Notes: a model not told the origin generated them from the letters alone. 63,782 nt of DNA, filler included, from Asterionella formosa (GCA_002256025.1; 19 parts of 19 records of this genome joined end to end with filler, not necessarily neighbours in it); one strand, 5' to 3'; positions 1 to 63,782 are shown, numbered from the whole stretch's first letter. A program made the numbers and translations.

Positions 1-1054
1 CCAGCTGCCTCTTCAATGGAACAAATTTCTCCTCCCATTCAGATGAATTACCTAAGTAAGAAGCTTTGGAACTGCTGATAGTGTATTTCTTGTAACACAG
101 ATGCTATTATCTTTGTCTATCTTTGCCCTTTGTTTGATACTACTCATTTTGGAATATGCTCACCTTTTTGCCTCTAGAAATAATGACCTCGTTTGGTTCT
201 AAAGATTGGTTTGGAAACACCTTATTTAAATAGCTTATCAATCTAATAGTATCGAATTTGTATTATCATCGTAATATTCTTACTTTTCATGAAGATATTC
301 CCTAAATCGACCAACTAGCAACCAAGAACCATTTATGGCAGGGTTACTGACAGTGGCCATAACTGATACTGCTATAATTTTTTGAACATCATGTGAAAAG
401 TGATTCCCCAAAAGCATTCCACTCATGATATAATGAACAATTCTAAAAACCTCTCGGGGAATCACTTTTGCACACGAAACGACGGAGATCTTGAGTAACA
501 TGGTGAGCTGATTGAAGCAAACAAAATCATGGCGTGATGTTTAGTGCCGCACCTTCAAGGATAATATTTTGTACAGATCTACGTGGGCTACTATCATTCT
601 TTTTGGATGCATTCTTCACAACATCAGCCGTCACAAAACGCATCCTCCAGCATCATCCTCATGACGATAACCACAAAAGGTCCTGACTAGTTCGACTAGA
701 ATCAATGTTTGCTGCTACGACTAGTAGGGAGTGCGTTGTTGTTTCATGCATACTAGCTAATGTCACATTTTACCTACCAGTATGTGTGTACTGGTGCGTA
801 CCTGGTACCTGGTAGTCGTTGAGTGCTCCTGTGCATATTCTTGCTTGTTTTTTCTGCCTCATGCACAGTACCAAATACCTGATAATCAGCATGCATATAA
901 TATATGATCGTCATCAGAACTTTGCTTTGCTTGTTGACTCGCTTTTTGTTGTAAAATGCATTATTACATACACACACATGAATATTTTATTCGTTTTCGT
1001 ACTTGACTCTCCTATCGTCGTCGCTCCTCTAGCTGTGTAGTTGACTAATCTACA

Positions 1055-1666
1055 ATGACAGTCCGACCCCGCCGTGGCGGCCCTTCATCTCGTTCATCCA
1101 GTGAGGATACATCGCCTTCGTCATTCTCATCATCATTGTGGGTAACAGCAGCTCATCATCATGCTCATTCTCAAGCTCATCCTACTACTACTACTACTAC
1201 CAATGGCGGGAGTATTTCACTATTTGTGGATGACTTGACAGAGTCAATGTCATATGCTACTAATAATAAGTATGTAAATGAAGATACAGAAGTATCAAGT
1301 TGGCATGAAGAAGCTCATTGGATGTCATTTCGATTAGCTTTACAACAATTTGCTTCACTGAAATTAATCCTTTCAACAACAACAGATGATCCGAGTGTTG
1401 CTTATATTGCTACTAAAAATGATAATGATGATGATGATGATCATACCATTCAAGAGCAAGACATTAATTTTAGTAACAATAACGACGAAAGAAATATGGG
1501 TGTTTCTTCCACCAGAAAGAAGAGTGATTCGATCTTGTCAGATTTGGCAGAAACAAAAATGAGATTAGCACTAGCACAGGCAGAACGGGATGAGCTTGAG
1601 TTTACACTAATGCAACAACAATCACCAAAAGCAACCAACAACCATCTCAACACTGTGAGGCTATAA
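1055..1666 (+). CDS. Hypothetical 203-aa low-complexity protein with a C-terminal coiled coil
   Basis: Single open ORF with a caATG start, Ser/Thr/Asp/Asn runs and a helical tail LAETKMRLALAQAERDELEF. No family recognised. Confidence 0.55.
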   Translation: MTVRPRRGGPSSRSSSEDTSPSSFSSSLWVTAAHHHAHSQAHPTTTTTTNGGSISLFVDDLTESMSYATNNKYVNEDTEVSSWHEEAHWMSFRLALQQFASLKLILSTTTDDPSVAYIATKNDNDDDDDHTIQEQDINFSNNNDERNMGVSSTRKKSDSILSDLAETKMRLALAQAERDELEFTLMQQQSPKATNNHLNTVRL

Positions 1667-3274
1667 AGTGATGTATATATATTATGCAGGAAAGAGTGAT
1701 AGTCTCCATATAGCAAAATATAGTTGATTTATGAATAATAATTCATGTAGTCTTCTGCTGGTACATCAATATGATAACATGACAAGTAAAAAGACAGCAG
1801 CTTTGATTGTTCATATAAACCGGTAGTTGCTGTAAAAATGATAAAATACTCCATGTTGCAGAGCCTCAAATATTGGCGGTGCTTATTGGGGTGCACGGGG
1901 CCCAGAGGGCCAGGCTTGTGCTATGGGAGGCAGGCAAGGAGTCCATGCAGTGGATATTTGAGTGTGTTATGTGAATGAAATGCTGCAGTCAAAATGAATC
2001 TATTGCAGAAGGAATGCATGGTGGAAGCTTGTTGAAGGCATCATATTGGATTTGCCAGCAGCCTGGTCAAAAGGATGGAAGTGACACTGGCATAGAAGCA
2101 TGACATTGCTTGCTTGAAAGGTGGTTGTGGTATTCTTGACAGTACTTGCAACAACGGGTCTTCCTGTAAACAATGGGATAATAAGAGGGAAAGGTCTGTG
2201 GGGGGGGACTACTAGGCAGGCTCCTATTTGTAGGGTGAGAGAGGGCAAGGTCTAATGGAGGGGGAGTACTAGGCAGTCTCCAAATTGAAGAAAATGCTGT
2301 GGGAAGGTTGCATAGTATTTTTCTTGTGCGCATGGGATTTTCTGTGGAGGGACCATCAAGACTGGCAGAGTTACAAGTAGGGATCAGGAAGGGGAGAGGA
2401 AGAGTTGGCATTGGGAACAAAGGTTGAGTTGTGTCAAGCAAAATTAGACATTGTGAATGAGGAGGTGTCAGCAGTAGTGCTACGGTATGCCAATGGAGGG
2501 TTAGTAGACTACTAGGAAATAAATGGTTGATTGGATTGTAACTCGGAAAGCTCAATGTTGTAATGTTGAATCTTTATCAACTTCGATGTATATCTAGTAA
2601 ACATTAGATGTTCAAGCAAGCAATGTTACCATGATTGTTACAGACAAAGAAGTACTCATGATACCACCTAAAACAGTTTGATGCTTCATCTCAATTGTTA
2701 AGATTTCACATCAGATTGTTATTATTTTTTATTTCATGTACAACCACAATGATGCTAGTTGCTTCATCATGAATTTTGTTACTGGTGCATGAGCAATGAG
2801 CACTGTGATTTATGGCTGCAAGCGATACTGCCGTGTAAAACGGTATTGCTGCATACTAGAGTACTAGACATCAGTTTTCGTGGTGGATTTCCTTCCGCCT
2901 CGCCTGCCATTTGTTTGATATATATATATTCCGATACGGATATTTTTATGTTAAATATCATACCGGTAGCCGGAATGACACGCGCACCGTCATGTTTTGC
3001 TTTTCTGCAGCACCAGCTGAGGACGATGCTGGAATCTTTCATTTTGAATTATCCTTACTAGGTAGCTTGATCCACCTTCTCCAACAAAATTAGAAAACTA
3101 CCGGTACTGCCTCATTGGTATACATGCATGTATCATTGATAACAAGCAAACACAACTCTCCATGAAGAAGATCCTAGTTACAGTAGTTTTAACTTTCATC
3201 ATGATGCGACGATTTTGTTGTCCATTCACATTTTCAGTTTTGAACAAGAATGTTAAAAGCAACTACAACAAGAA

Positions 3275-5020: not shown

Positions 5021-5494
5021 TACTAAGTGTAATACTACATGGTCTTATAGACTTCACACCACTGTAGTAGTAGTAGTCAAATATAACTAGTTTCAAAATA
5101 TCATTTGCTCATTTCACACTAGTACTTATGTAATAAAATTATTTATAAAGCATATTAAGACTACTCTAAGTTTGTTGGGGAACCCATTTAGCACTTGTGT
5201 TTCATACTTCTCAAATGACATCATTGCAATCATCAATTTGATTTGAAATCAAATAAGTTCTTGGTAGGAAGCGGCAACGACAATAGGAGTAGAAGTACAC
5301 AGCTCAGTATGATAGCTTTCAAAGAATTAATGTGCAAGTTTGATGGCATAATTGGGTTTGAACTGCTGATTCAATGCACGATGAGATAATGAGCATGCCT
5401 TTGTTCTTGAAAATCAATTTCAACAGCAATATCACATCATGCTAGTAGACTGTACTGGTACCAGTACATGACCACTGGTAAATGTACAGAGGCA

Positions 5495-5734
5495 GGGGAA
5501 TGGCTTAGTGGTTAGTAGCACACACCTCATGAGGTGTGGTGGGTTTGATTCCTGCATTCTCCACCTGTCATTATTTTATGCAGTCCCTAGGGTTCTAGGG
5601 TGTGTGGCTGACAACAAAACAGGTCTTGTTGGAACATATGGATGAATAAAACTGGCACTAATTGTGTCCATTCATGTGGGCACAAGTGCGATTATTGGAT
5701 AGCTAACATACTATAAGATTTAATTGACTATTAT
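5495..5734 (+). mobile_element. tRNA-derived SINE, family B, copy 1, with target-site duplication
   Basis: Head GGGGAATGGCTTAGTGG (A box) ... GGTTTGATTCCTGCATTCTCC (B box and acceptor-like end), then an AT-rich tail. Flanked by an 18/19-nt direct repeat, TGGTAWATGTACAGAGGCA, at 5476-5494 and 5735-5753. Homologues at 42389-42626 and 62023-62223. Confidence 0.8.
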
Positions 5735-7771: not shown

Positions 7772-10018
7772 ATGTTTTTAATAGGAACTATTCCACAGTC
7801 TCCTTCAGCTGAACAGATTCTTTCTGAGATGCGAGATCATCCCACATGTGCTAATGCTCAAAAAAGGGGTTGTGATGCACTTGACCGTGCCTCTTCTCAT
7901 GACAACTTTCGTGACAAAGTTGCTGAATTAGGAGGTATCGCTACAATTCTTTCTGCCATGCAAGAGCATTCCGCTAATGCTAATGTTCAATTAAGCTGTT
8001 GTCAAGTACTTTGGAACTTGTCTTTGAATGACAATAACAAGGTGGCTATTGCTGAAGCAGGTGCTATTGCTACAATTCTTTCTGCCATGCAAGAGCATTC
8101 CGCTAATGCTAATGTTCAATTAAGCTGCTGTCAAGTACTTTGGAACTTGTCTTTGAATGACAATAACAAGGTGGCTATTGCTGAAGCAGGTGCTATTGCT
8201 ACAATTCATTCTATCATGCGAGGAGTGCATTACGCAAATGCTAATGTTCAAAAATGGTGTTGTCAAGTACTTTGGAACTTGTCTTTGAATGACAATAACA
8301 AGGTGGCTATTGCTGAAGCAGAAGGTATTGCTAGGATTCTTTCTGCAATGCAAGTGCATTCGTTGAATGCTGCTATTCAAGAAATGGGTTGTAAATTACT
8401 TTGGAACTTATCTCGAATTGACTACATCAGAGTGGCTGTTGATAGAGCAGGATGTATTTCTACAATTCTTTTTGCCATGCGAGAGCATTTTACAAATGCT
8501 GTCATTCAAGAATGGGGATGTGAAGTACTAACGATCTGTTCTCATAACGGAAATTTTTGTGAGGATATTGCTAAAATGAAAGGCATTGCTGCAATTCTTT
8601 TTGCCATGCAAGAGCATTCTGCTAGTGCTAATGTTCAACTAAGCTGTTGTAAAGTACTCAAGATCTGTTCTCGTAATGACAAAGTCATGGTGGCTATTTC
8701 AGAAACAGGAGGTCTTTCTAAAGTTCTTTCTGCAATGCGAGAGCATTCCGCAAATGCTGCCATTCAAGAAATGTGTTGTAAAATACTTGACAACTGTTCT
8801 CGTAATGAAAACTTCACGATGGCTATTACTGAAGCAGGAGGTATTGCAACAATTTTTTCAGTAATGCATGAGCATTCCGCAAATGCTAACATTCAACTTA
8901 GCTCTTGTCAAGTACTTGAGATCTGTTATCTTAATGACAGCGTCAGTGTGGCTATTACTGAAGCAGGAGGAATTGCTGCAATTCTCTCTGCCATGCGAGA
9001 GCATTCCGCAAATGAGTATGTTCAACAAAGGTGTTGTGATGTACTTTCGCAAGTGTCTCTTAATGACAACGTCGCTGTAGCTTTTACTGAAGCAGGAGGT
9101 ATTGGTACGATTCTTTCTGTAATGAATAACCATTCCAAAAAATATGTTAGTGCTCAACAAAGCTGTTGTCAAGTACTAAAGATATGGTCTCTGAATGAAA
9201 ACTTCAGGTTGGCGTTTGCTGAAGCAGGAGGTATTGCTGCAATTGTTTCTGTAATGAATGAGCATTCCTCAAATGCAAACATTCAAGAAAAGGGGTGTGC
9301 ATCACTGTGGATCTTGGCTGCTAATGACAATGCATTTGTTGCTATTGCTGAAGCAGGTGGTATTAATAGGATCCTTTCTTCCATGGTATTGCATTCGAAA
9401 AATGCTGCCATTCAAGAACATGGTCTCAGAGTACTTCAGAACTTGGCTGCTAATGACAACAACCAGTTGTTCATTGCTGCAGCAGGAGGTATTTCTAGGA
9501 TTATTGCTGCAATGGGGGGAGATTTCTTTAATGCCACCATTCAAGAGCAGGGTTGTGCAGCACTTTGGAACTTGTCTTGTAATGACAATAACATGGTGGC
9601 TATTGCTAAGGCAGGAGGTATTGCTAGGATTCTTTCTGCAATGCGAGTGCATGCAATAAATGCTGCTGTTCAAGCAATGGGTTGTGGAGCACTTTGGACC
9701 TTGGCTTCTAATGACGACAACTGGGTAGCTATTGTTAACGGAGATGGCGTTCATACGATTTGTGATGCAATGCAAATGCATTCATCAAATGATTGTGTGC
9801 AACGTTTGGGTTGCGCAGTACTTGCCAACTTGGCTTATACTGATGACCATAACATTGTGGCTATTGCTAGGGCAGATGTTATTGCTGCAATTCTTACTGC
9901 AATGCAAATGCATTCCTCAGCTGCTAATGTTCAAGAACAGGGTTGTAGAGCACTTTCAAATTTGGCTGCTAATGCCAGGACACGGGAGATTATTTCTGAA
10001 TTAGGAGGTATTTCTATG
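7772..10018 (+). CDS. Armadillo (ARM)-repeat protein, aardvark-like, about 17 repeats, 3' truncated
   Basis: About 749 codons open to the linker. Recurring ~43-aa unit AGGIAxILSAMxxHSxNAxVQxxGCxxLWNLSxNDxN. Confidence 0.9.
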
Positions 10019-11809: not shown

Positions 11810-13490
11810 TAACGCAGTACACCGGTTTTACCGCTACCTGTATGGTGATATACCGGTATGTTTATTTACCGTCATTTGCTTACCGGTACCTTGGATCAGT
11901 TACCGGGAATTAAGGTGAAGATCTCGTTTACTGGACTTTCCGTGCCTGGTTGTCTTCGTACATAAATGTATGTACTCTCCAGTAAACTCAACAGATGTAC
12001 TCTGGAGCACGTTACCTGGTAACGTTTTGGGGATTTTTCGATTTTCACTTTTAGCTTTCTCGAGCAAAATGTAGATGCATCATGAGGACCCATTTTTCTT
12101 CGAACCATCTATTCTCAACATACGTACAAAGTACGATATAACAGTAGAACAACTGCAACCTGCGTTCAATTATGGAATGTGCAACCCCGAAAGTGGCGAT
12201 GATGGGAAGGAAGAAAACGACGGTATGCTCGTTCTGAGGATTGTAACCGTTAAACATACGGTGGCATGGTCCATGAAGGTGCAACAACCGTAGAAAGTAT
12301 ACCGAACGACAATTATTCTATTCAGGTTATAATTATGATAGTGGCTTGTTGTATTTGGTTTCCCGCAAATATTTGACTGGCCGGCCGATGTGAAACAGCA
12401 GTCGGCGGTATGTACATGCTTGCAACGAATATGCGTATGTTAAATTGGTTTCGATTATTATATTTACATGCTAAAACTTTAATTACAGAAACCGAGTATA
12501 TGTTCACATCTATGTAACTCATTAAAAAGGCATTTTTTAGAGTAAGCTGACCCTCACGTAGAAATATTTGGTATGTTGACTACATAATCCTTCATTTGCG
12601 AACAGTAAAGACATTGGTGGTGCCGGCGAATCGATGCAACTGTTACTAGACAGAGGGAGTACCTGGTAACGCGTACTAGGAACTACCTAGGCCGGGCTAC
12701 TAATTACATATGTACACCTGACCACTTGTTTTTACTTTGGTGGAAGCCCAAAAAAGAAATTTCAAACGATTGAAATGATCGTCCGATCTTCGCTTAGTCT
12801 ACCGGAACTATAGACTACTGGTACCTGGTACCACTATGTAGTAAGTATACATGGAGTTGCTTGTAGTACTAGTACCAGGTACCGTTACCGATACTCTAGC
12901 CAAGCAGTCGTGCCAGAATTGTATTGTTGCCGCCGATGGATGTGGCATACATGAAAAAAATAATTGTGTGGATCTTCGGCTCTGTTTTCACTTATTATGC
13001 ATGACTCCAAATTTTTGTCACCAGCCCATCACTTAATCATTCATAGATTCACATACCGGTATTACGAGCCGCTGTGTCAATTCATTTTTTGTTGGAGCAA
13101 ACGTTCCAAAAAAACATGGATCTTGACATGCTCACCTCTTGAGAACTGCAAATCTCAATTGAACTCCGAAATCGATGCAGTGGCAAATTCTTCGACAGCT
13201 TGCAGCGAGAAGGGCTGTGGTCGCTCACAACGAACGAAAACGTCAAGAAGTACCTTTCGCTGCCACTGAGCGTTCCACGCGACGACTCGATCGTGCAAAT
13301 GATGACTGTGATCAAATATCAGGCCATGTCCAATCGAGAACAACAACAACTGAACGAATGCTGAGGAGATGGAATTCTTGTTTCTGGTTNNNNNNNNNNN
13401 NNNNNNNNNNNNNNNNNNNNNNNNNNNNNNNNNTTAATTAATTAANNNNNNNNNNNNNNNNNNNNNNNNNNNNNNNNNNNNNNNNNNNNA

Positions 13491-14015
13491 ATATTGCGAA
13501 GCATGGGTGTCACCGACGCATCGAGACATGTTGCTCGGAAAGTACTGGAAAAGGGAAACTCATTGGGTATTTCCACTGGAGGCGTTGCTGAAGTATTTGA
13601 AACAAATGCGGGAGATAAGTGCATTGTGCTGAGAGAGCGTGTGGGACTGATCAAACTAGCTATTCGAACAGGGGCAGACTTGGTGCCCTGTTATTTATTC
13701 GGAAATACTAAAGTCTTGAGCTGCTGGGCTGGAGAAGGCATTCCCGGTGGAAGGGATATTTTGGAGAAAGTATCAAGAAAGATTGGATTTGCTTTAATTC
13801 TGATATTTGGACGGTGGGGATTACCCATACCGTATCGTGTGCCTGTCCTTGGCGTGGCTGGGAAATCGATTTCGACAAAACATATGCAATGTGAAGAGCC
13901 CACCGCTGAACAAGTCAAGGAAATTCAAGAACAGCTATTGAAGGGAATGGACGATGTCTTTGAGAGGAACAAAAAAATTTATGGATGGGAAAACAAGAAG
14001 CTCGTTATTAAATAG
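13491..14015 (+). CDS. DGAT2: Diacylglycerol acyltransferase type 2 (DGAT2/MOGAT family), C-terminal part
   Basis: GGVAE block; RVGLIKLAIRTGADLVPCYLFG matches RxGFxKLAxxxGxxLVPxYxFG; GRWGLPIPYR; ends LVIK-stop. Confidence 0.9.
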   Translation: MLRSMGVTDASRHVARKVLEKGNSLGISTGGVAEVFETNAGDKCIVLRERVGLIKLAIRTGADLVPCYLFGNTKVLSCWAGEGIPGGRDILEKVSRKIGFALILIFGRWGLPIPYRVPVLGVAGKSISTKHMQCEEPTAEQVKEIQEQLLKGMDDVFERNKKIYGWENKKLVIK

Positions 14016-16094: not shown

Positions 16095-16858
16095 TTATCT
16101 GAAATTTTTTAAACCTATATATATATATATAAGCTTATTGCCATTCATACCTCCAAAAACATCAGTTCTGTAGGTTTAGATTAACTTTTCAGAAACAAAA
16201 TATCCATTGAATTGAGCTAGGGGCAAGGGATTGAAAACCCAGACTGAATCCAGTCTATTAGACTCAAATCAGTCTAGCCGGAAAGAATCCGTATGTAGAA
16301 CGAGAAGGTTGCGTATGATGAATTGCGTCAGTTCGGCCATGACGTACTTGCGTTCGACAGCCTTCTGATGTATCTGGTACCAGGTACAAGGTATAGTAGT
16401 ACTCTGTGACTCCCAGGTACGTACTCCCCATCCGGTAGCCTGGTACCAGGTACCTAGCGGAGTACCATTTGGTATTACCTGGTACCGTAACCAGGTAACT
16501 GGCACTCCTGCTTTCCATCGAGGTCATTGTATTCCCATTTACCGGTAATTGCCGGTAAATACCACAATGTAGTACGTACTACAGCACTAAAGGCTCTAGA
16601 ATGTCGTACCAATGATTATTTTAGGAGAAAGATGATATTTAGAGGTTATTAAAACTCGTAAGTATGCATTTCAAGCCAGGGAAGCAACATGTATAACAAC
16701 ATTGACACCGAAAATAGACCTCCAGTTCGGTTTACATAGATTGATGTCAGAACAAGGANNNNNNNNNNNNNNNNNNNNNNNNNNNNNNNNNNNNNNNNNN
16801 NNTTAATTAATTAANNNNNNNNNNNNNNNNNNNNNNNNNNNNNNNNNNNNNNNNNNNN

Positions 16859-17473
16859 CCCTAATCACATTGTTAAGACAAATCTGAACACTGACCAACT
16901 CTTCAGGAGACAATTTCTTTCGAGGCAAGACATTGCCTTGTCGAGGCGCTTTCGAGGTCATGATGTTGGTATTGTGATGGGTGATGGGTGACTGTTGTGT
17001 GTTTGCATTTAATTTTTGTACTCATAATTCGGGCGCGCCAGGAATTCCTATTTGACGTTTTCCATTAGTGAATTTATCTCTTTATTATGGCGCACGAGCG
17101 AAAGCGCAATGACGTCGTAGCCATATTAAATAAATTTTAGAGGATACTAAATTAGTTTTCTAGCGGAGGAATATTGTCATAGCTGGATACGTATATAAAA
17201 GGTGATGCTTGCTCAATCGAGTAAACGTGAAAATATCCAATTTTCGCAATTTCACGTCGACAGCAACCTTTGGGCGATAATACCTAATTAACAATGTACA
17301 CAATGCAACAAGACAAGTACGGAAGTATTTACTCGCTATATAAATCTGAACAACTCGTTCGTGACAATAAATAGCGTATCTTGTAAAATAAGTTCAAACC
17401 GTGCGTTTACTCCGTTTAGCGGTGGCTTACAGTTCAAAAGTGGCCGTAGCGGTGGCTTACAGTTTTTAAGTGG
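16859..17473 (-). mobile_element. Putative end of a TA-targeting DNA transposon with subterminal direct repeats and an ORF start
   Basis: Minus strand begins TA|CCACTTAAAAACTGTAAGCCACCGCTA. A 27-bp unit is repeated at 17417-17443 and 17447-17473. An ORF, MTSKAPRQGNVLPRKKLSPEE, starts at 16961 and runs off the contig. Confidence 0.4.
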
Positions 17474-23260: not shown

Positions 23261-24129
23261 AAATACTGGTAGACAACCTACTCCGAGTACGGGTAATTGT
23301 TATATATACCGGTAGCACTTTAAGTGAGTACCTAGAATAGACCTAGAAAACCGGTACTGGTACCAGTAGGTCTATGGTGGTGCAATGTGGTGCAGCGATG
23401 ACATGACGTCACGAAGTCATTTTGAAATATTATTGTTGCGCATGTGCAGCTTTTCAATATTCATCTCCAACGTTGCATCATGCACATCACCACANNNNNN
23501 NNNNNNNNNNNNNNNNNNNNNNNNNNNNNNNNNNNNNNTTAATTAATTAANNNNNNNNNNNNNNNNNNNNNNNNNNNNNNNNNNNNNNNNNNNNCAAGGA
23601 AGGCTGAAGAGTTCACCCAGCATGAAAGCATGTTACACAACGTTTTCAAATACCAAGGAAGCTAAAGAGTTAGCATCCAATCTTGCAGGTTGATGGTTCG
23701 ACAAGAGACCATTGAGAGTGGCATTTGCTGAGTCGATACCTGGAATTGTACAAGCGTAGACCGAGACAGGCTTTAGGTAGAAGCGACTATGGAGAGAAGG
23801 TGACAATAGTACGTTCATGGTGAGGGAGTAGGTGGGAACGCATGCAAATACCGAACATTCTTGTCTTTTCCTTGTGTTCAACCTTGTAGGTGGTTTGACT
23901 GGGAAAGGGGATACTTTTGAATATGAACGCTGCAAAAGGTCTGTGAATATCTAGGGTGGTGAAGATAAGAAAGGAACGAGAGCATAGACAATGGTAAGGA
24001 ATCTGCTCATGTCACAAAGGACTGCCACCAAATGATGTCTCTCCCCTTTTTCTTTTCCTTTCAACGAATTTCAGGGAAACAATTTACTTCGTATTCCTAA
24101 TCTTTTTTTTGTAGAAGTGCTTTGCACAA

Positions 24130-25790
24130 AATCATTCTGGTATATTCGTCTGTAAATAAAAAATATCATGAAAATATGATCAAGGGTATCATATGCTAAG
24201 TGGCACAGGATTTTCAAATATATGATAGTTTTTCGATCAAAAATATTGTCAATGTATCATATAATTATGATCATGCAGTAAACTTTTACCAAGCTTGAAG
24301 TTTGATGAGACTATCATAGTTATAATACCATTGCATCATATAATTAGTTAAACATAGTCATATGATGTGTATACTTTTGTCATACATCTATCTTAGCATG
24401 ATCATAATTCTCATCGATATCACTGTCTAAAATAGGATGAAATCGATCGAAATTTAGAACTATATTTAGCTAAGAATGGTTCTATGATTCTAGTATATCT
24501 TAAGTGGCTACAGAATGTTCTACAATGCTCACATCGCAATGATTACTGGTGCCGCTTTCACTTCCACCTTCCCCCCCCATCCAATTCTGAAGGTTGTTGT
24601 ACTGGTTGCCTTGCCGTTGTTCCCCTGCTTGCTTTGTTCCATTTACTCCTGATGGATCTGAGTTTGCATTCACGCACTATTATTGAATCCGTTTCGTTGT
24701 TCCAATCAGCCATACTAACAAAGAGAAGCAATTCATTGTTAGCCTGTTCATGTTTTGCTTACACAACAAAATTCATGTCGCTTCTATCTGCCTTCACTTA
24801 CCACAAATTGAGGAAGTAACTGATGCATATTTCTGTAGAAGAATGTGTCGGTCGAAGATTGAATGAGAAGCAAAGTATCGATCAATTAATGGGCTCCAAC
24901 ACTGCTGTTTGTAACTTACAATTACTACTGATTGTCTACCATTATCCTAAAAGAAGCAACACATATGTGTCAGTTTTTCTAACAGTTGTGGATTGATCCA
25001 AAGATGGCTGATAGGCAGCACATATTGATTTCTTTTGTCCACAGCCATTGATGGTTGGCCAGTCACCAAATCGAAAAGGAGCTATTGAATCACTGAAAGG
25101 GGACGAGTCATTCCGTAATTGTAATCCCAGAAATTGATCATCTTGGCATTTGCTCTTGACAAACCGTGATGCTATGCACAGCTTGTTGATTCCGCCCTTC
25201 TCTATCATATTCACTCATTCTTATCATGCTGTACTGTCACTTCAGTTTTTCGCATCATGTGTTGCTTGAGATCCTTCATTTGAGGAAGTGGATGCAGCAT
25301 GGCAAGGAACGACATGAAAGGCATTTGCTCTTGACTTACCATCAATTGATTCCGCCCTTCTCTTCTAAGCCGCAAGTATCATTGTGCTGTATTATCACTT
25401 TCGTTTTCGGCGTCATCATCTGTGTTAATCCTTCAATTCAGGAGCAAAGTGTATGCATGACAAGGAACATGAAAACATGATTTCAAATGTTTCAGCCATG
25501 AATACATATGTATAAAGATTTGTAAGAAGTTTAAATGTATATAAAGTTGAACATTTGCATAGTTTGAAACACGCTCATTATACGGCACATCCTGTGTATA
25601 CTTTCATCAATTTTGATTATACATAATTCAAATATATACAATGCATGATGAGTTCATAGTTTTCCACGACCTGTTGAGTTTTTTCAATTTGCGTTGTGTC
25701 AATTCTTGTACCTACAAGTCAGTGGCTGATTAAATTAAGCCCCTTAATAAACGGGAGTCATCACAAATTTTTCAAATTGTCGAAATCATA
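24130..25790 (-). repeat. Dispersed ~1.6-kb AT-rich repeat, homologous in inverted orientation to 51470-52960
   Basis: Collinear shared blocks such as ATGACTCCCG.TTATT.A.GGGCTTAATT, TGTAGGTACAAGAATTGA, CATGCATTGTATATATTTGAATTAT, CTTGCGGCTTAGAAG and ATGATACCC.TGATC. Confidence 0.7.
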
Positions 25791-27355: not shown

Positions 27356-28437
27356 TGTTCATTCGCATGTTTTGATTTCTCGGGTGGTACCTGGTACCTG
27401 GTACTAATACCACGTCAGACATCTACATATAGAAAGTGGTATGACATCTTTGTTCATTCGCATTTCCGATTTCTCGAGTACCGCTACCAGGTCAGACAAA
27501 AACATTAGCAAAAGTGGTATGACATCCCGCAGCATACAAAATTACGTATCTTAGATCATGAATCTATGTAGAGCCGAAGTACATAGGGCGGACACATTTA
27601 CGTAAATAATGAATGATTACGAGTACCGGTGAAAGAAGTATTGAAAATCTGATGTGCTTCATGTTACCCTGGTACCAGTACCAGTACTGCTTCGAAGATA
27701 TATGCACATGCATTTCTCTTCATCATACGTAAGTCAATCCTATGTCCAATGTACATAGCTTACCTTCCGGTCTAATGAACGAACAAAAATTTCACGACCA
27801 AAGCCGTCAATGTTCCGTTGTTCGAAGGGAACATATGAAAAAGAAATGAATAAACTGCTCTTCTGTTTTGTAACCTGGTACAACATGGTACCAAGGGACA
27901 GGTAACTTGTACGCCGTGATCCCTTAGGTAAATTGATAAGAATGGTGAGTAAACTACTCCTTGCTATTGATATCAGCTAAAGAAATATGTAAATGCTACG
28001 TTGCCGGCATTTGCATTTTGGAAATGAGAACACAAACAAATTTATTCGAATCATCATCATGACGAGTGATTATGTCATACTAAATACAAGTGCAAAATGT
28101 AGATACCGGTAGTCCACTTCTAAACAAATGACAATGATCAATATACGTACCGGTAGCATGCATGGTAGGTAATAATTCCAGGTCGTGTACCTGGTTCTCT
28201 TGGATGCATTAAAAGTAGTGAGTAAATTCATGTACTACCTGGTACATACAATGTATTTATTTCAGCTAAAGAAATACCGAGATGCAATTGCTTCATTGGC
28301 GGCATTTGCAAGAAAAATTATGTCATAGATACAAGTCCAAAAGGTAGACTACTTCCAGATAATGATCATCATATGTAGTAAACATACAAGGTACCAGGTA
28401 ATGGTTCCAGGTTGTGTACCTGGTACCTGTTTCTCTT
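27356..28437 (+). repeat. Two pairs of diverged local direct duplications (~95-bp and ~270-bp periods)
   Basis: TTGTTCATTCGCAT...AAAGTGGTATGACATC at 27356 and 27451. GTGAGTAAA...TCAGCTAAAGAAATA...GGCATTTGCA...TTCCAGGT.GTGTACCTGG at ~27945 and ~28218. Confidence 0.75.
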
Positions 28438-28438
28438 A

Positions 28439-31469: not shown

Positions 31470-31490
31470 GTTAGGGTTAGGGTTAGGGTT
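31470..31490 (+). repeat. Telomere-type repeat (TTAGGG)3
   Basis: GTTAGGGTTAGGGTTAGGGTT, next to a ~85-nt T-rich tract. Confidence 0.8.
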
Positions 31491-38869: not shown

Positions 38870-38965
38870 CCAGCAAGTTGCGGTCATTTTGCTTAAACTA
38901 ACATTTCAATCTAGGATAAAAATAGCTAAATCTTTAGTTTCAGCAAAATTACCGCAACTTGCAGG
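38870..38965. mobile_element. 96-bp MITE with ~32-bp terminal inverted repeats, CC(A/T)GCAAGTTGCGG termini
   Basis: Left end TA|CCAGCAAGTTGCGGTCATTTTGCTTAAACTAA; right end reverse complement CCTGCAAGTTGCGGTAATTTTGCTGAAACTAA. Related copies at 43179-43256 and 62400-62419. Confidence 0.75.
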
Positions 38966-39680: not shown

Positions 39681-41236
39681 ACTACGGTTGTCAGGATAAA
39701 AGGAGGTTCTTGGTTATTATGAGTTTTTACAATTAGTGCATCTATATTAACTCATAGTTAAAGGGAGCGATTCACAAAGACCTGAATGCAAAGGTCATTA
39801 GATGTCATAACATTGGTATGGATAAACTAGAGGTGCATAAATACCAATAGTTATCACATTGCATATAGTTGTGGGTACATAACAATGTAACATGTACTAC
39901 AAGCTACAAACTACAAACTAGTAACTGTGTATTTAGCATCACCTACTAATCATCATCAATCCCGTGTACATGTATGTACTACATATGGGTACCATGGTAC
40001 CAGGTAGTAGTCTTGTGCGAAATGAAAAAGAGTACATCTTTCACTTATGGTACCAGGTAGTCATTGCTTGGATATGCAATGTGCACTCATTGGTGGTTAG
40101 TACTAGTAAAATGTTCTAGTAGACGCTCTGTGCTTGCCCTTGACCCTGACGGAATCTAGCTCACCAGTAAAGCCCCCAATTTTTTGGATTGGGGGAATGA
40201 GTTTCACCCTAAAATATTTCCTTACAAATCGAATTTCAGCATAATAGTATTCAAAACGATCATGCCACAGATGGAAGATAACTGCTGTCTGAGCTGGCCA
40301 GCATAGTATTTATNNNNNNNNNNNNNNNNNNNNNNNNNNNNNNNNNNNNNNNNNNNNTTAATTAATTAANNNNNNNNNNNNNNNNNNNNNNNNNNNNNNN
40401 NNNNNNNNNNNNNTTTGTTCCAACAGAAGTGAATAGGTCCAACGAGCGACAAGAGCACTTACGCAATTTGGTTTTGTTTTACATTGGTGCTCCCCAACAA
40501 GCGAAACGAGCTGTTGAATCAACTGAGAAAAAAGGAAATGTGGCTGCGTTTAGTTAACAATTTGTTGTTGTGCTGCCTGTCTCCCAACGATTGTCATCCA
40601 AGTACCACATTGATGGCTTCATTACCTTAAACATTATCCATCCTTCGAAGGCGCAATGTGTCGAAGTCACAATGTTTTTCGTTATGCATTGCATAAACTT
40701 TCTTTTCTTGTCATGTGCTTTACTATGACGTATCTTTTCATGAAGCAGCAGGCATTGTTTGTTAACATGACAGAACGATTTCAAAAATATATATGCCATG
40801 AATATAGTAATAAAATTTGTAAATATATTTTTATATATAGTGTTATACATTTATAAAATTCAAAGGCGCTCTCGATATGGAACATCTGATATGGTTAAAA
40901 TGATCATACTCGCATATACATAATTCGAAAATACTCAATGCACTATATGTCAATTGTTTTCCACGACTACATGTACCGGTATTATTTCTGAAATTTGTTT
41001 GTATCGATATTTTCTACGTCCGTTGAAACTAATAATTTAGACCATTCAATCGGTGTAAGTCATAACCGCCAGGGTTTTGGTAGCAAATTGTTTAAGCCCC
41101 TTTTTTGGTTGGGAGCTCTTCATGTGTACCGGCACATCATATGACAATAACAATATATCATATATATATATACAGAGTACCAGTAGCAGGTAGTAAGTGA
41201 TATACTGGGGGTAGTCGGAGTAGTAAACTAGCAACA

Positions 41237-42388: not shown

Positions 42389-42626
42389 AATTAAATTTTA
42401 TAGTATATTAAGAAAGCTATCCAATAATTGCACTAAAACTAGTGCCCACATTTTCAATGGAAACAATTAATGCCGGTTTTGTTAGTCCCTACGTTACAAC
42501 GGGACCTTTCTTTTCTTCAGCTGTACCCCCGGAAACTCAGGGAATATATGAAAAAGACAGGCGGAGAATGCAGGAATCAAACTCGCCACCGCGCACAGTG
42601 GGTGTGCTAACCACTAAGCCATTCCC
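42389..42626 (-). mobile_element. tRNA-derived SINE, family B, copy 2
   Basis: GGGAATGGCTTAGTGGTTAG ... GTTTGATTCCTGCATTCTCC ... ATTATTGGATAGCT ... ATACTATAAAATTTAATT; collinear with 5495-5734. Confidence 0.8.
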
Positions 42627-43769: not shown

Positions 43770-44285
43770 CCTTTCCTTCTATTTCTATATTGTACTTGCT
43801 CGACTTATTGCTGTAGACTATTTGTAGCTGCTCCGAAACGGAGAAGGCCATTGCGGCACATCTCAATTTTGACTCACTACGGCGACATGCAAGGTTAAAA
43901 TATGCAACAGCTGTTTCTGAACGAAATAACGGATTCAATTCCTTATTGTCAGCTACTCAGCATCCTTTCCTTCTTTTTCTATATTGTACTTGCTAGAGTT
44001 ATCGCTGTAGACTATTTGTAGCTGCTCCGAAACGGAGAAGGCCATTGCGGCACATCTCAATTTTGACTCACTACGGCGACATCCAAGGTTGAAATATGCA
44101 ACAGCTGTTTCTTAACGAAATAACGGATTCAATTCCTTATTGTGAGCTACTCAGCATCCTTTCCTTCTTTTTCTATATTGTACTTGCTCGACTTATTGCT
44201 GCAGACTATTTGTAGCTGCTCCGAAACGGAAAAAGGCCATTGCGGCGCATCTCAATTTTGACTCACTAGCTACGGCGACATGCAA
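43770..44285 (+). repeat. 194-bp tandem repeat (satellite-like), ~2.6 copies, running off the contig
   Basis: Units start at 43770, 43964 and 44158 with few differences; the period is not a multiple of 3. Confidence 0.92.
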
Positions 44286-44702
44286 TGCTAAACGATGCTC
44301 AACGAGGACCAACAGTGCTTTATTTCCAATCTGGCAGGCTATTGTAATCTCTACAATCAACAATGACTTAATTATGTGTCTACAACATCAACTACTACTA
44401 CTACGTGTGCTGAATTCTACAGTGTGAATCTTCCTCTTGCATGTGTTATTCTTTGCCAGTTCAGATCAAAGTGATATGTCGGAGCGGAAAAAATAATAAG
44501 TGTATCGGAATTGGCGACTCTTTCGTTCATTATATGGTGAAAGCAGCATAATATTGCGGCAGAGCAGCATAATTTCGCTTTTAAACTGTTGCGATGGCTA
44601 GTTGGTCAACATATATTGTCACGAACACACATAATTATTGGTGTGATCACATAATTATTCGATAAGTGAAATAAATTTTTGTTTAACCCGAATAAATTAG
44701 GG

Positions 44703-47432: not shown

Positions 47433-48076
47433 TATTCCGGAGTACATATCTATATGTGCAGGTAGCTTGTCTACCAGGGCTCTGGGGCACACCTGATACC
47501 TGGTACTGGTACACCAGTTTACGAGGTTACGAGGTTCCAGGTAGGCCCACGATGCATTATGACTCGAAATCAATACTATGCAATGGTAACCTGATGATGG
47601 TCTTGGTTGCCCTGCGATCGCAAGCAAGCAGGAAGTCAAGTCCAGTCATGATTTGCCGGTCGATTAGGAATGTAACTTACATACCGCTACTACTGTGCGT
47701 ATCATGCAAGGCAGTCGTGCAAATGTATCATTTACCTCGGACAAGGCGCGACAAGTCATGATATATAATGCGCACACTAGTATTTTGGGTTAAGTCGAAT
47801 ATGTAGTACTCCATAGTCCTCATCATTATATATCATGACTGCTAGTCGACCGGCAAATCATGACTGGACTCGACTTCCTGCTTGCTTGCGATCGCAGGGC
47901 GGACAAGACCATCATCAGGTTACCATTGCATAGTATTGATTTCGAGTCATAATGCATCGTGGGCCTACCTGGAACCTCGTAACCTCGTAAACTGGTGTAC
48001 CAGTACCAGGTATCAGGTGTGCCCCAGAGCCCTGGTAGACAAGCTACCTGCACATATAGATATGTACTCCGGAATA
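47433..48076. repeat. Long inverted repeat: 231-bp arms (47433-47663 and 47846-48076), 182-bp spacer
   Basis: The arms are reverse complements with about 4 mismatches; this explains the mirrored ORFs in the track. Confidence 0.95.
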
Positions 48077-51469: not shown

Positions 51470-52960
51470 TGTACCATATGAAATATTTTGTATGACTCCC
51501 GCTTATTGAAGGGCTTAATTGAATTACTTACGTGTAGGTACAAGAATTGAGGCAGAAAAATTCAAAGACAGTACATCAGGTCATGGAAAGCAATGATATC
51601 CTCATGCATTGTATATATTTGAATTATTTATAAGCTTAATTGATGATAGTATACAAATTATGTCTATATATTTATACGTTTTCAAATTTTTATAAATGTA
51701 TACATAGCCTATACATTTGAAATCATGTTTAGAGGTTCCTTGTTATGCCTACCGGTACAACATGATCCTGAACTGAAAGATAATCTCTGCCCTGTGACAA
51801 GCAAGGAAAACTGAAAGAACGACGCTTCAACGCACACAATGATGATAAACCTTGCGGCTTAGAAGCAAGGATTGAAAATGGAAGAGTGAATGGGATCTAG
51901 CTATGGTATGTCAAGAGTACATGCCAAGGTGATCAATTGTTGGATTCTCAAAGACAAAATGATTGCCTCCTTCCCTAGCAAATCAAAAGCACATTTCGCA
52001 TTCAGCGGGATACCACCAATGTCGACCAAAAACTTGTAAATGCTCTTGTTGAATCAATGAGCCACTGTTAGAATATCACTGACACATGTTTGTTTTTCAA
52101 TCTTTCAGGATAATTCTAATCAAAGAGTTTAGTTGTAAGTTATAAATGACATTGGTGGAACGGTTTGTTGATTTGTACTTATGTAATCATTGACTGACAC
52201 ATTATTTTACTGAATTATGCGAAAAGTTCATTGATTTCTGGTAAGTGGAGCATGCTAAGAAAATGGGACTGCAGTGTTTGAGACATAAACAAAACATGGA
52301 TAACGAGCAAGTAATTCCTTCTCATTGTTATTATAATCAGTAAATCAAAATAGATAAAACAGAATCGGATCAAAAGGAAATGGGATTTGCAGCTTGCAGT
52401 CAGATGAGTTTCAGAATCTGAGTGAAAGGGAGGCGGGAGGCATGCATCAAGAGATTTGCTTGAAGGCAGGAGGCAATGCATCCTCAAGAGCATTGAAGGG
52501 AAGCAGGGGAGAGGCAAGCATCCTCAAGAGCATTGAAGGGAGTTGGGGAAGACATGCATCCACACAAGCATTGAAGGGAGGCAGGAGGCATGCATCAAGA
52601 GCATTGAGACAAGAATAGAAAAGGGGAACATTGGCTGTTTAACCACACAAAATGTAGAAACATAAATTTTTTTCGTGATATAACAGTTAAATACAATCCA
52701 TTTCAACCTATTTTTAACAGCTATTTCAATTAGAGTTACCATCAAATAAGGCAGGATAGGTATATGATAAAAGAATATACATCATAGGATAATGTTTTGA
52801 TAACTATATGGTGGTTTGATTATTATGAGTTAGCTTAGCCTGTTCACTGTCATAGAATGCATTTATCATACATCTAACGAAATATGTATCATGCAAAGAA
52901 AAATTCTGTGCCAGTTATCGTATGATACCCCTGATCTTATAAGTATGATATTTTTTATTT
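51470..52960 (+). repeat. Second copy of the 24130-25790 dispersed repeat, containing a CAAGAGCATTGAAGGG minisatellite (52426-52607)
   Basis: Collinear homology with the reverse complement of 24130-25790; about 5 internal purine-rich units. Confidence 0.7.
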
Positions 52961-57300: not shown

Positions 57301-57358
57301 TATTGCTCATCAGTTGAGGGTGCAACACATCAATACAAGTAACCATTTCTAAAAATTA

Positions 57359-58991: not shown

Positions 58992-59073
58992 CTAGGATAT
59001 TTCATCCATTGCAAATACATGAATGGCCAATATTGTAGGGTATTTTGTACCCAGGTTACAAATGGTGAAGTTT

Positions 59074-60252
59074 TCAATCAATCTTTTTGGCCCCAATATC
59101 CTTACTCCCCTCGAGCTTCCACTTGGGCAACCAATTCACTCTGAACCATTCAATGGTGGCCTTCCATGCTTCGTCATGCAAAAACAGTGGGTCATATTTG
59201 AGATCTCTTCTCGCGTTTTCAATGCTGAAATACCGGTGGATCGTGAGCATTTTGACATTAAACGGATTGAGCTTGAATTTCTTGTTCAACAAAAATCCAA
59301 TAAAATTGCAAAGGTATGCAATCGCCAACAACAAGAAAACGGGGAGATGAAATTTCTTCTCCAAGTCTGCAAATCCTAGTTCCACAGCCGCTTGGTTGAT
59401 AATCTTCCAAAACATTACGGGTTTTTCGTCAGTTATAATGTAGAACTTGCCAAGGGACGGACTGTTCATGGCCAGCGTATCTGCTCCACACATGAGTCCA
59501 TGACAATAATTATCAACATAGCACACCGAAATAATATTGTTTCCGTTTCCAAAGATCCGAAGTCGACCAGTCCCGCAAGTCTCCATCAAACTAGGAAAGA
59601 ACAATGTATCGTACGGTCCATAGACTTGATGAGGAGCAACATTTATGGTGAGCAATTCGTCGCAACACGCTCTGGTCACCTCCTTTTCCGCGTATGCTTT
59701 GGACTCCGCATAGGCAGCTAAGAATGTTTCTGGAATTACCAAGTCATCCTCGGATGCTCCTTCAATATCCTTGCCTGTGAATCGCGTCGACGGCGAACTG
59801 GAGTTGACCAACTTTGGCACCTTGTACGTTCTGCATGCGTCCAAAATATTCATTGTCCCGTCAAAGTTGACTTTCATGTAAAGGGAATGATCATGAAACG
59901 GCCCAACGAGCGCAGCAATGTGATAGACAACATCGATGTGGTCGACGCACGTAAAGGCGTTGTTGACGGAGTCCTTGTTGGTAATGTCCCCATCGGTTCC
60001 GGACTTGACGATGATCGTTCCGCCAGTCTTTTGTTGGACGTCTTTGAATCTCTGTCGCAAGACGTCATCAGGAGTCGCAATGTCGAAACAAATGACAGTT
60101 TTGGCACCTCGTTCCAAGAGCATTTCGACCAGGCGAGAGCCAACGAAGCCCGCCGAACCAGTGACAAGGCAAGTGCTGCCAGAGGCACTTTGGAAGCCGG
60201 GTTTGGCTTCCACTTTCGCCTGCTTCGATGGTGATTTGCCAAAGCCAAACAT
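59074..60252 (-). CDS. NSDHL: 3-beta-hydroxysteroid dehydrogenase/decarboxylase (NSDHL/ERG26-like, sterol C4 demethylation)
   Basis: TGSAGFVG Rossmann motif, VYHIAA, VNFDGT, SSSPS, catalytic YAESK, PHQVYGP, CYVDN, GKFYIITD and a C-terminal hydrophobic segment. First ATG at 60252. Confidence 0.88.
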   Translation of the reverse strand: MFGFGKSPSKQAKVEAKPGFQSASGSTCLVTGSAGFVGSRLVEMLLERGAKTVICFDIATPDDVLRQRFKDVQQKTGGTIIVKSGTDGDITNKDSVNNAFTCVDHIDVVYHIAALVGPFHDHSLYMKVNFDGTMNILDACRTYKVPKLVNSSSPSTRFTGKDIEGASEDDLVIPETFLAAYAESKAYAEKEVTRACCDELLTINVAPHQVYGPYDTLFFPSLMETCGTGRLRIFGNGNNIISVCYVDNYCHGLMCGADTLAMNSPSLGKFYIITDEKPVMFWKIINQAAVELGFADLEKKFHLPVFLLLAIAYLCNFIGFLLNKKFKLNPFNVKMLTIHRYFSIENARRDLKYDPLFLHDEAWKATIEWFRVNWLPKWKLEGSKDIGAKKID

Positions 60253-60534
60253 GCTGCCTTTGTGGTTTATACGCAAAGCAATGAATCGAAAATACTACCT
60301 GGTACCACCAGTTTCAAGTTTCATTTTACCAATGATTACGGAGATTACCAGGGAATTCCAGTTTGGCAGAGTGTACCAGCCAGCAAGGCAGTGGGGTAAA
60401 TCTGTGTTGTCAAGAATATTAGCCCGAGTCACAANNNNNNNNNNNNNNNNNNNNNNNNNNNNNNNNNNNNNNNNNNNNTTAATTAATTAANNNNNNNNNN
60501 NNNNNNNNNNNNNNNNNNNNNNNNNNNNNNNNNN

Positions 60535-60915
60535 TGGCTATCTTTTTTCCGCTTTATTTTTATGTTTTTGAATTAGCGGATGCCCTTAGTTCTTGGCGAG
60601 GTACGTTGGTTCAGAGGCCAAGGCCCCTGGGCTTCATATTTGGATCGATCGATAATATATCGAGGTATTCCTCTCCAACCAACTCCAACTCTCTCACACA
60701 CAAACTTCTTCTTTTCATATATAGTTCCTGCCATGGCGATTGCACATGCCAAATGCAAAGCCGAGATTTACAATGTCATTGTTACCCAATATTACATTTG
60801 GCCCATTACCAATTGGTGTAACTTTGCCTATGTACCTGAAAATCTCAGGGTGTTGTTTAGCAACATTATTTCCGTATTTTGGAATGCCTACCTGTGTTCC
60901 AGACTCGCAAAGTAA
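60535..60915 (+). CDS. Mpv17/PMP22 family membrane protein, last two exons
   Basis: Exon to 60600, GT-AG intron 60601-60724, then IWPITNWCNFAYVPENLRVLFSNIISVFWNAYL, matching WPxxxxxNFxxVPxxxRVLxxNxVxxxWNxYL. Confidence 0.88.
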
Positions 60916-62022
60916 AAAACATGAACGACGCGCTACATATAGGTATATACCGGGGCTTTGTAATTTAACAGAATACTAGTTGCCAGCAATTTTTCCTTTT
61001 TGTATCGTAGAGTTGACTACCAGGTACCAGTAACCGACTGTGTCCATGAGACAATGTATTAGGTATTCAAAAGGCACATTTGTCTAGGTAAATGCGCCTA
61101 CCGGTTCTAGAGCATTTCGTATTTTTCATAGGTAATGCTTGGGGTAGCTAAAACACGATGGATAACCCACTATATCGTTATTGCATGTTGTTGAATGTTT
61201 AATGGATGCACGAGTACAGGTAATAGTGATGTCCCTCATGTGGTAGCTTTAAACATGGAACATGGATTTATTACCAGTAGACTATTACTGGTAGCCAAGT
61301 ATATTCTGTGTAACTGATACTCACCCTGGCACTCCGGAGTCCCAGGTTCTAGTCAAAACATGTATATCTATCGGGAGCGACATGTCGTCCAATAGATGAG
61401 GTGAACCTGCCCAGCCAAACAAATAGCGGATGTACCTAGCTACTGGTGTACACTGTGATGCAGCATGACCTAACATATCATTTCGAGTTACATGGGCGGT
61501 GTTCCGGACTGCAGTAACACATACCAGGTGCACCCTGGAACAATACATCAATAGTGTTGGCAGAGTCTGGCCTTGTTTCTTGACTGAACCAGGATGATCT
61601 TTCTACACAAAGAGCTAAGTCTATCTTGTCGTAACAAGCAATGCATCAAAAGAAGTAAATTCATGACAGCTGGGAAGAATAAACATTCAGTTGAGAGGCG
61701 GGCGGGCTGTAGTCTCAAAGGGGAGGCGAGAACCAATAGAGCATCATCACTGGAAGCCAAGACAAGTCAAAGCCCCGCCATGAAGCTGTATATTTCAAGT
61801 GATATAAAAATTCTTGAATAATCAAAGGGTTGAAATTGAAGCGAGAGCCCATCGACCTTCAATCGAATCCGACCAATCCATGAAACTGAAAACGAAGCTC
61901 TGGTTACTAGTGAACTTGATCCTAATGAATGTTGTAGGAATCAACTCCTAGTGTTACTGCTCTGTATATAGATTATTTTACTAAATTCACTAGGATGCAT
62001 GATATAATGTCAATTCATTTTA

Positions 62023-62223
62023 AATAATCGCACTTAGGCCCAAATAAATGGACACAATTAGTACCGGTTTTATTCATCCATATGGTAAAATGGGACGAGT
62101 CTTTTCGTCAGCCACACACCCCGGAACCCTAGTGACTACATGAAAAAGACAGGTGGAGAATGCAGGAATCTAACCCGCCGCCGCACAAGATATGAAAACC
62201 AGCACTAAGCCATCATTCTCCCC
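62023..62223 (-). mobile_element. tRNA-derived SINE, family B, copy 3
   Basis: TGGCTTAGTG ... ATTCCTGCATTCTCCACCTGTC ... CTAGGGTTCCGGGGTGTGTGGCTGAC ... CATATGGATGAATAAAAC.GG.ACTAATTGTGTCCATT; collinear with 5495-5734. Confidence 0.8.
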
Positions 62224-63782
62224 ACTAGGATGCTTGATAGCATTACATGGATATTCATGATTTACGTTGACATTGGTGCTTAATTGATGATTTGGTGTAA
62301 AACTATATCATTTGTTAAAGAATAATAGTTGTCTACTGGTAAATGTTCTTTCACTGGTAAAAATGCGTTGAGACTACCAGTACACATAAATCATGCGCTC
62401 AGCAAGTTGCGGTAATTTTCCTATATCTAGTTCTAGGCCATGTATGACTTTGTACCGGCAATACTGATTCGAATTCCCAATTGATACATGTGTCTCTTCT
62501 TGGCATCCGTTTAATGAACCAAACTTGTCGGCTTGGTGTTCCAATATATTTTTAGCTTCAATCTGATTTAGCCAGAAATATTGAGACCAATCTGTTTTGC
62601 TTATTCTGCCATTTGCTTCCATTGGTTATGACCGTTTTAAGGAGCAATTTTGCTCATTGTGATGTCATCACCATTTCAACATAGCTGCTGTCACACCCAC
62701 CTTCGACCTATGTAATCATACTGTAGCTAATAATATTGAATATCTGTTAATAAATGAAAGATGAAGTGAACAATCTACATTTCATACCGGTATATATTAC
62801 AAGTATGGCTGGATTCATGCACAGGGTATGTAGTACCCGAGGTAGAATGCATTTGCTCTGGAATATAATTATTTAGCTGAAAAAATGCTATTCTTTTGCA
62901 TATACTAGAATACGCTATAGAATAGCAGTAGTCATAGTTGCAAGCGGCTGGAGAATCCTTCATCATCATGTCGTCACAGCGTTGACCGTGATGAAAATAG
63001 CGAATATCTCGACGAAAAATGAGAATGACGCTATCATCCTATTTGATACATATATCAAACACTACATAGAAAATACAATCGTAAAAGGATAATCTTAATA
63101 ACACTTATATAGACAACGAAAATTGAAGTCGCTGTAAATTTTTCATGTAATTTAGAGATGCGCAATTTTGAAACAATGATGCTACGAGCAGATACAACAC
63201 TTTTACTGTAGCTACGCAACAAATAAGGCTACGACTACAGCAACCAGTAACATGAATAATCGAAGCAAAAGATGTGAAAATAAGGCTATTAACTACTGAG
63301 AATTGATTGATTACGAATAGGCAATTTGTAGATAGTCCTCGTGGAAGCCGACAAAGAATGTGACGCTTATGCTCTGGTATGATGTCGTCAAAACTACCAG
63401 TAATGCCCTATAGTAGTAGTAGTAATGTGCAGCAGCCCATTCCTATATACCGCCACATATGAAAACCGGTCTACTGTGTCAAGTACTCAGATTTCCTTCC
63501 CATTGACTGCTATAGTGTCTCCTCTTCCTCAAAATCACGACATTTTCTCATCAACAACTTCAACAAAAATTATTTCTGGAAAAATCCAAATGCATCCTGC
63601 TTTCCATTCCATGTGTAGCTAGGCTACTATCCAATCTCATTTCATCAATAAATCCATGCTCCCAAAGTATCTGCAACAGATCCTTTGGTTTATTTTCCCA
63701 TACTTTGATAACTTTTGCTTTAGTTTCTTCCATTTGTAAGTTGTGTTCTTGTGCCTTTGACTGTTTTGCTAGTTTCTTAGTA

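Follow-up and report, generated by a model that had tools for sequence, protein, structure and literature searches.

Excision footprints of transposons of the IS630-Tc1-mariner (ITm) group carry a duplicated TA around a core made of the element's terminal bases, and the empty allele has a single TA. The footprint of Sleeping Beauty is TA-C(A/T)G-TA, and Tc2-like elements have CCGTA termini. The Tc1 footprint, taCATGta, is called rare in PMC3520976, and the DD35D pogo element Passer is described in PMC9976928 as favouring regions of transcription start sites and leaving footprints of 0-4 bp. Short TA-bounded palindromes are also reported from oomycete promoters, namely motif-1 TACATGTA and motif-9 GTACCGGTA of Phytophthora and streme-5 ATACCGGTAT of Plasmopara (PMC3520976, PMC10031896), the motif-9 core GTACCGGTA being given in PMC10031896. 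A footprint origin was raised for motif-1 in PMC3520976 and dismissed there on the grounds of abundance and conservation. We have analyzed a stretch of 63,782 nucleotides (the window) from the assembly GCA_002256025.1 of the diatom Asterionella formosa, together with further loci of the same genome, for an excess of palindromes of the form TA-CC(W)GG-TA. The excess is made up of two things: scars with a CCGG core, very probably left by the excision of pogo-type transposons, and a chained form with a CCWGG core, which would have grown beside such scars by a second route.

The window consists of 19 contigs of ~3.25 kb, separated by artificial N44-12 bp-N44 linkers; open reading frames (ORFs) that span the linkers are artefacts. 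It contains 26 copies of TACCWGGTA (9 CCAGG and 17 CCTGG), 20 of TACCGGTA, 11 of TACTGGTA, 13 of TACCAGTA and one of TACCATGGTA, together 71 units between positions 775 and 63402, which form 61 single sites or chains. A preliminary description of this DNA, made by eye, had put the first two at about 25 and 18, close to our counts of 26 and 20, for each of which an order-2 Markov model predicts ~0.6 on a single strand. With both strands considered, and the model derived from the window, TACCAGGTA is observed 26 times against 0.6 expected and TACCGGTA 40 times against 1.2; they are the most over-represented 9-mer and 8-mer of the window, respectively. Long ORFs were defined as stop-free frames of at least 200 codons, which make up 24% of the window bases and hold 17% of its TAs. 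At least one unit is present on 16 of the 19 contigs and 68 of 70 units fall outside such frames (binomial p 6e-4 against the TA share), in agreement with the same description. It also held that every variant consists of a prefix of CCA and a suffix of TGG between two TAs. The variants it listed do parse in this way; three other enriched forms, TA-CCG-TA (30 vs 15.6), TA-CCAGGG-TA (12 vs 0.4) and TA-CCCGG-TA (5 vs 0.7), do not.

The genome-wide excess of TA-bounded palindromes in non-coding DNA is real. Across the 68.4-Mb assembly, with the reversed motif as control, TACCGGTA occurs 28,528 times (control 1,718) and TACCWGGTA 26,886 times (control 902), a 17- to 30-fold excess. The units are also biased in position. 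In the 600 bp on either side of 40 ORFs of at least 250 codons with full flanks, we counted 32 CCGG and 31 CCWGG units upstream and 9 and 6 downstream (TA: 1,686 vs 1,415), so that unit density is 3-5-fold higher upstream.

Paralogue comparisons indicate how TACCGGTA arises. When the window and 149 loci of the genome were aligned all against all, an empty TA was found in a paralogue for 10 of 26 TACCGGTA sites, some of these 10 being copies of one event, compared with 1 of 427 other TA-N4-TA sites (Fisher p 6e-13). A second comparison covered 205 sequences (689 kb) and collapsed filled and empty TAs to 85 independent events; in 14 of these the core has four bases, and in 13 it is CCGG. Loci L170-L186 were picked for a unit inside a miniature inverted-repeat transposable element, MITE-A, and this choice raises the counts of CCGG (2-3 of the 13 events) and of CCWGG (all three rows, from one family). 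None of the 13 CCGG gains is a simple tandem duplication or a copy of its flanks, and therefore CC and GG come from outside. TACCGGTA is thus a 6-bp insertion at TA that duplicates the TA, the empty allele being a single TA, as had been proposed. Most CCGG units stand alone (150 of 175 in the 383 kb examined for chaining and flanks), and CC follows them in 8% of cases, against a background of 7.3%. Compound insertions, in which CCGG is accompanied by an adjacent second, varied unit, recur.

Several of these events can be seen in the window. The TACCGGTA site at 11881-11888 is filled, and its 91%-identical paralogue L078 lacks the 6 bases and reads TG at the TA. Conversely, the TA site at 12497-12500 is empty and L078 has CCGGTA, and the empty TATA at 17337-17340 corresponds to a CCGG and a CTGG unit in locus L004. 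The TACCGGTA site at 51750-51757 is filled, as it is in L003, and about 6 bases are absent from five more diverged copies, in L065, L077, L079, L090 and the window itself, where the empty TA of the repeat copy lies at 25452-25453 on the minus strand. Contigs from four runs aligned to L009 showed substitutions and gap-rich records over chains (67 gap letters in one), and no unit-sized indel among the rows listed.

These observations bear on the idea that the motifs are selected transcription factor sites that arose through substitution and are maintained upstream of genes. The 3.5- to 5-fold upstream bias would be expected from it, similar motifs are reported in oomycete promoters (PMC3520976, PMC10031896), and PMC11134190 shows binding of TACATGTA by the MYB factor PsMyb37. 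The units, however, arise by insertion, also within dead repeats where selection is not expected, and their one-base decay neighbours occur at an ordinary load at every position, so that we consider such an origin highly improbable; some sites may have been co-opted later as cis-elements. The oomycete palindromes resemble the present units in their TA-N4-TA form and their abundance upstream in a stramenopile, and the motif-9 core is the same. They differ in that the sources cited publish them as candidate factor sites, whereas the present data show that the units insert at TA and that an element with fitting tips is resident, in the diatom only. A likeness to the cyanobacterial motif HIP1 had also been suggested. 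HIP1 is described in PMC5861425 as a short palindrome over-represented 15-300-fold and as a reported insertion site for a small repeat. The fold excess is indeed comparable. In other respects the likeness fails: HIP1 is conserved inside coding regions and is thought to stem from a mutational ratchet (PMC5861425), whereas the units here avoid ORFs, arise by insertion and decay, showing neither coding conservation nor an origin by substitution.

The genome contains 93 matches to the DDE_1 domain; 30 of these loci were examined and yielded three families, P1, P2 and P3. P1 is ~2,460 bp long, has TA|CCGTAAAACC... ends (115 termini) and TIR (terminal inverted repeat) arms of 28-30 bp, and matches DDE_1 with an E value of 1e-21; the DD35D spacing is 35 in L095, L111 and L116, and internal deletions of 800 bp also occur. 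Since P1 copies in different flanks are 99.7-100% identical, the family has been mobile recently. P2 is ~2,330 bp long with TA|CCGTATAC... ends and has a 646-bp derivative, and the ends of P3 read TA|CAGTG... (CAG...CTG). CCG stands at the start of the element in 39 of 42 P1 ends and 8 of 10 P2 ends, with TA outside in 36 of 42 and 9 of 10. The best relatives are environmental proteins at 94-96% and 84% identity, followed by matches mostly at 40-52%; only two related metagenome loci were found, both 94% identical and both CCG-ended. The pogo groups Passer and Fot/Fot-like share with P1 a DDE_1 domain, DD35D, a TA target site duplication and TIRs under 40 bp, and Passer is reported in stramenopiles (PMC7386202). 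Judged by its DD35D, TA duplication and short TIRs, P1 would fit the groups Passer and Fot, a placement by features. We found no member of these three families in the window, where the 16 ORFs scanned gave ARM-repeat, DAGAT and 3-beta-HSD families only and no transposase.

The CCGG core matches the tips of P1 and P2, CCG...CGG, and it is very probable that TACCGGTA is the scar of a pogo excision. A cut of the established Tc1/mariner type at CCG ends would give each flank an overhang of CC or CCG. We propose that pogo-type transposons with CCG...CGG ends inserted at TA, duplicating it, and that their excision would leave 2- or 3-nt CC(G) overhangs. End joining would give TA-CCGG-TA either way, by joining CC to GG or by pairing CCG and CGG through a 2-bp CG overlap, and rarely TA-CCG-TA or TA-CCSGG-TA. 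Long repetition of this cycle would have left some 27,000 scars, mostly single and biased upstream of genes, part of which would then have decayed at their CpG to CTGG or CCAG. The mechanism is a known one, that of an ordinary ITm footprint, and its scale is unusual. Known ITm footprints differ from the present case in that there are here ~28,500 copies of one scar, concentrated upstream, and a second, chained form without a matching element end.

TACTGGTA and TACCAGTA are partly the result of such CpG decay of CCGG. A CpG transition turns CCGG into CTGG or CCAG, and several of these units align to CCGG in paralogues; at each of the 11 sites that have paralogues the difference is a substitution, and none has an empty site. 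CpG transitions in the paralogues are 3-6 times as frequent as other transitions. This is one respect in which the idea of a single source for all variants, put forward in the preliminary description, is not supported. Another is that CCWGG differs from CCGG in its flanks, in its chaining and in that none of 13 single sites has an empty counterpart.

Most CCWGG units (100 of 174) lie in chains. Even at the ends of the chains CC follows in 40-44% of cases, five times background, and the flanks read GG|...|CC. Genome-wide, the chained dimer occurs 5,576 times, against 2 for the control and ~169 expected if units fell independently on TAs. All six chains named in the preliminary description were found: TA-CCTGG-TA-CCTGG-TA at 799-814, where it precedes the ORF at 1055 by ~240 bp, and again at 27388-27403; the palindromic chain TA-CTGG-TA-CCAG-TA at 5453-5466 and at 23355-23368; TA-CTGG-TA-CCTGG-TA at 12816-12830, whose middle letter is opposite in paralogue L078 (A for T); and TA-CCATGG-TA-CCAGG-TA at 39990-40006. 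The last holds the sole CCATGG unit in 383 kb, in which CCAAGG was not found at all. A further chain, TA-CCAGG-TA-CCAG-TA, lies at 61018-61032, and a cluster at 16378-16547 comprises one CCGG unit and three of CCWGG, with decayed ones in between. Two mirror copies of one chain, within 47497-48012 (47497-47511 and 47998-48012), are not independent because both lie within one foldback. This foldback, with 235-bp arms, occupies 47433-48076 and has a TA outside one arm.

Gains of CCWGG were seen only as one double unit, CCTGG-TA-CCAGG, at a TA that is empty in three loci, and, in one paralogue family, beside a CCGG scar. At one MITE-A site the paralogues form a series with an empty TA, CCGG alone (L183 and L185), or CCGG followed by 1, 3, 4 or 5 CCWGG units in the same orientation, and slippage is therefore at work. 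It does not account for everything, because dimers are in the same orientation in only 55% of cases (3,074 of 5,576): A-A occurs 1,485 times, T-T 1,589, T-A 1,500 and, by subtraction, A-T 1,002. Loci L001-L012 of our sample were taken from contigs listed in the search for these dimers. As for the element ends, 49 are TA-flanked, of which two abut an exact CCWGG, two a decayed CCWGG and two TACCGGTA-TA; these six, together with the compound CCGG gains, fit a re-use of scars. The earlier proposal that the element reuses its own scars is in line with this and with the clustering of units far above chance. Two P1 ends that adjoin a chain (L103 and L129) have the second or third base altered, CGG and CAG for CCG; these are perhaps abortive cut-and-rejoin events.

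The CCWGG form would accordingly be a second layer, added mainly at or beside existing scars. Repeat hits followed by error-prone repair in a palindromic GGTACC context would probably add one extra A on either strand, the resulting units would multiply by 7-bp slippage, and the arrays would then become a preferred landing site of the unrelated MITE-A. We lean, at roughly even odds, towards repeat hits that add a single base, combined with slippage, rather than towards a family with CC(A/T) ends that has since been lost or growth templated by repair.

A different account is that one CCA...TGG-ended Tc1/mariner element made all the variants, as first suggested, or that an older, GGTACC-preferring family with CC(A/T) ends made CCWGG, each scar giving two new targets. 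The GG|...|CC flanks are those a GGTACC-seeking element would leave, the near-random orientation of dimers and the double unit whose TA is empty in three other loci would follow from it, and the inspection of single DDE_1 matches covered 30 of the 93. A TA-targeting ITm family with tips matching CCGG does exist, but its ends are CCG...CGG in P1 and P2 or CAG...CTG in P3, and no CCA- or CCT-ended TA family was found in the 30 inspected DDE_1 loci or in a 543-kb catalogue of TA|C/G termini. The mariner (PF01359) and Tc1 (PF13358) profiles gave no match, both being weak tests, as P1 scores on PF13358 by hmmscan and the PF01359 control was also silent. CCATGG and CCAAGG are nearly or wholly missing, decay of CCWGG is no greater than that of CCGG, and CCGG has a simpler source. 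The lone apparent CC(A/T)G-ended MITE turned out to be a target user. A single CCA...TGG-ended or older CC(A/T)-ended source is therefore unlikely in our view.

MITE-A is that element, noted in the window and in loci L021-L050. The window copy (38873-38962) is 90 bp long with GCAAGTTGCGG-type TIRs, stands in the middle of a TACCAGGT-like site and has a single A on both flanks; genome-wide, the TIR core has 845 matches. In 24 rows oriented by the interior (~20 independent elements), the flanking bases are T/T in 12, A/A in 10, C/C in one and A/G in one, thus the same on both sides in 23 of 24 and never A/T; the outer base is C in 19 and G in 18 of the 24. MITE-A was rejected as a CC(A/T)G-ended source, since the A/T letter is identical on both sides in direct orientation, whatever the orientation of the element. 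The letter is a direct duplication, so MITE-A lands in the motif and is its user, not its maker. The empty-site consensus is GGTACC-W-GGTACC; MITE-A apparently has a one-base target duplication and a strong preference for this sequence. In this it resembles NuwaI of the PIF-Harbinger type, which is defined by CWG target duplications and has a CWG-centred target with W directly repeated on both sides (PMC4482050). It differs in that a one-base duplication fits better than CWG and in that its TIRs begin GCAAG, with ends GC (or C), not GGG. The MITE-A TIRs were absent from the best 20 of 150 DDE_Tnp_4 (Harbinger-type) loci, and there was no autonomous partner among these. A very young PIF/Harbinger family with more than 30 equal-scoring copies and ends AGGG/GGGTCG was noticed at L150 and L159-L169; it was discarded as a source, its AGGG/GGG-type ends following T-N-A-like flanks being unrelated. 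An 8-bp hAT-type duplication at GGTACC was likewise rejected, as it cannot yield CCGG at ordinary TAs.

It has also been suggested that the units owe nothing to transposons and are made and spread at palindromes of TA or GGTACC through the opening of hairpins, template switching or slippage. The series of 1, 3, 4 and 5 same-orientation units, the 55% of same-orientation dimers with T-then-A in excess of A-then-T, the one middle-letter flip between paralogues and the frequent resemblance of TA-GC-TA gains to inverted duplications all agree with this, and at least one chain does grow by tandem slippage. On the other hand, the seed CCGG gains copy no flank, so that CC and GG are external, pure slippage would give near 100% same orientation, and under stricter filters there was no flip among 23 CCWGG contexts. 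Transposon-independent mutation thus accounts for the growth of chains, not for the seed, and as an account of the whole it seems to us improbable.

We put the probability of the two-layer model, pogo scars with CCWGG arrays added upon them, at about 0.7. A number of points weigh against it. The insertion is seen directly, and the excision is something we infer, none having been observed. Some 55,000 units stand against ~115 P1 termini and an uncounted number from P2, so most scars must derive from lost elements, and the CAG-ended P3 has left no excess of TACWGTA (34 vs 33.2). CCWGG, half of the signal, is not spellable from CCG ends without an extra base, a step that we infer, and none of 13 single CCWGG sites has an empty paralogue. 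The excess of CTGG/CCAG is ~10 times that of other one-base neighbours, above the 3-6-fold CpG rate, and the palindromic CTGG-TA-CCAG doubles would need two decays; some CTGG/CCAG units must then be primary. The upstream enrichment could equally reflect selection. Finally, one-base gains, TA-C-TA or TA-G-TA, are the commonest of the 85 events (34, of which 19 are not simple duplications vs 6 for A/T), and TA-GC-TA gains account for 12; since these are as common as or commoner than CCGG, a more general TA-directed process exists. They may perhaps form a larger class of footprints, derived from elements with C...G and G...C ends. Examples are found in L137 and L146 and in the window contigs at 23595 and 47126.

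Some other features of the window were noted. A unit of ~190 bp is present in three tandem copies at 43770-44290, one of them with a TA-GC-TA gain. A short repeat that includes a tRNA-like part and looks like a SINE by eye has related copies at ~5500-5720 (minus strand), 42470-42620 and 62060-62220. Three TTAGGG telomere-like units at 31472-31490 adjoin a retroelement-like ORF at 32020-33522 (minus strand) that has no Pfam match. The region 7772-10018 encodes a 748-aa armadillo-repeat protein of near-identical internal repeats, 13494-14015 a diacylglycerol acyltransferase fragment and 59074-60276 a 3-beta-HSD family gene, with a CCTGG unit 20 bp upstream of the ORF.

In the open-access literature searched, we found no description of diatom promoter scars on this scale, of their bias and chains or of a scar-seeking MITE. 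Footprints are usually treated as rare; here there are ~55,000 sites, and the added DNA comes to ~0.36 Mb (28,528 x 6 + 26,886 x 7 bases), or ~0.5% of the assembly. Past transposition can thus be counted long after the elements are lost, elements that land in scars can be mistaken for the source of the scars, and a genome's foremost promoter "motif" can owe its origin to mutation. A more far-reaching possibility, which we hold only tentatively and think doubtful, is a self-feeding ecology in which pogo scars seed hot spots, further hits and slippage grow CCWGG arrays, a MITE with a one-base target duplication specialises on the arrays and the host begins to use the scars as cis-elements; on this view the oomycete TA-N4-TA "factor sites" would likewise stem from transposons. 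The present result offers a direct test for these oomycete promoter palindromes, for which the footprint idea was set aside because of their abundance.

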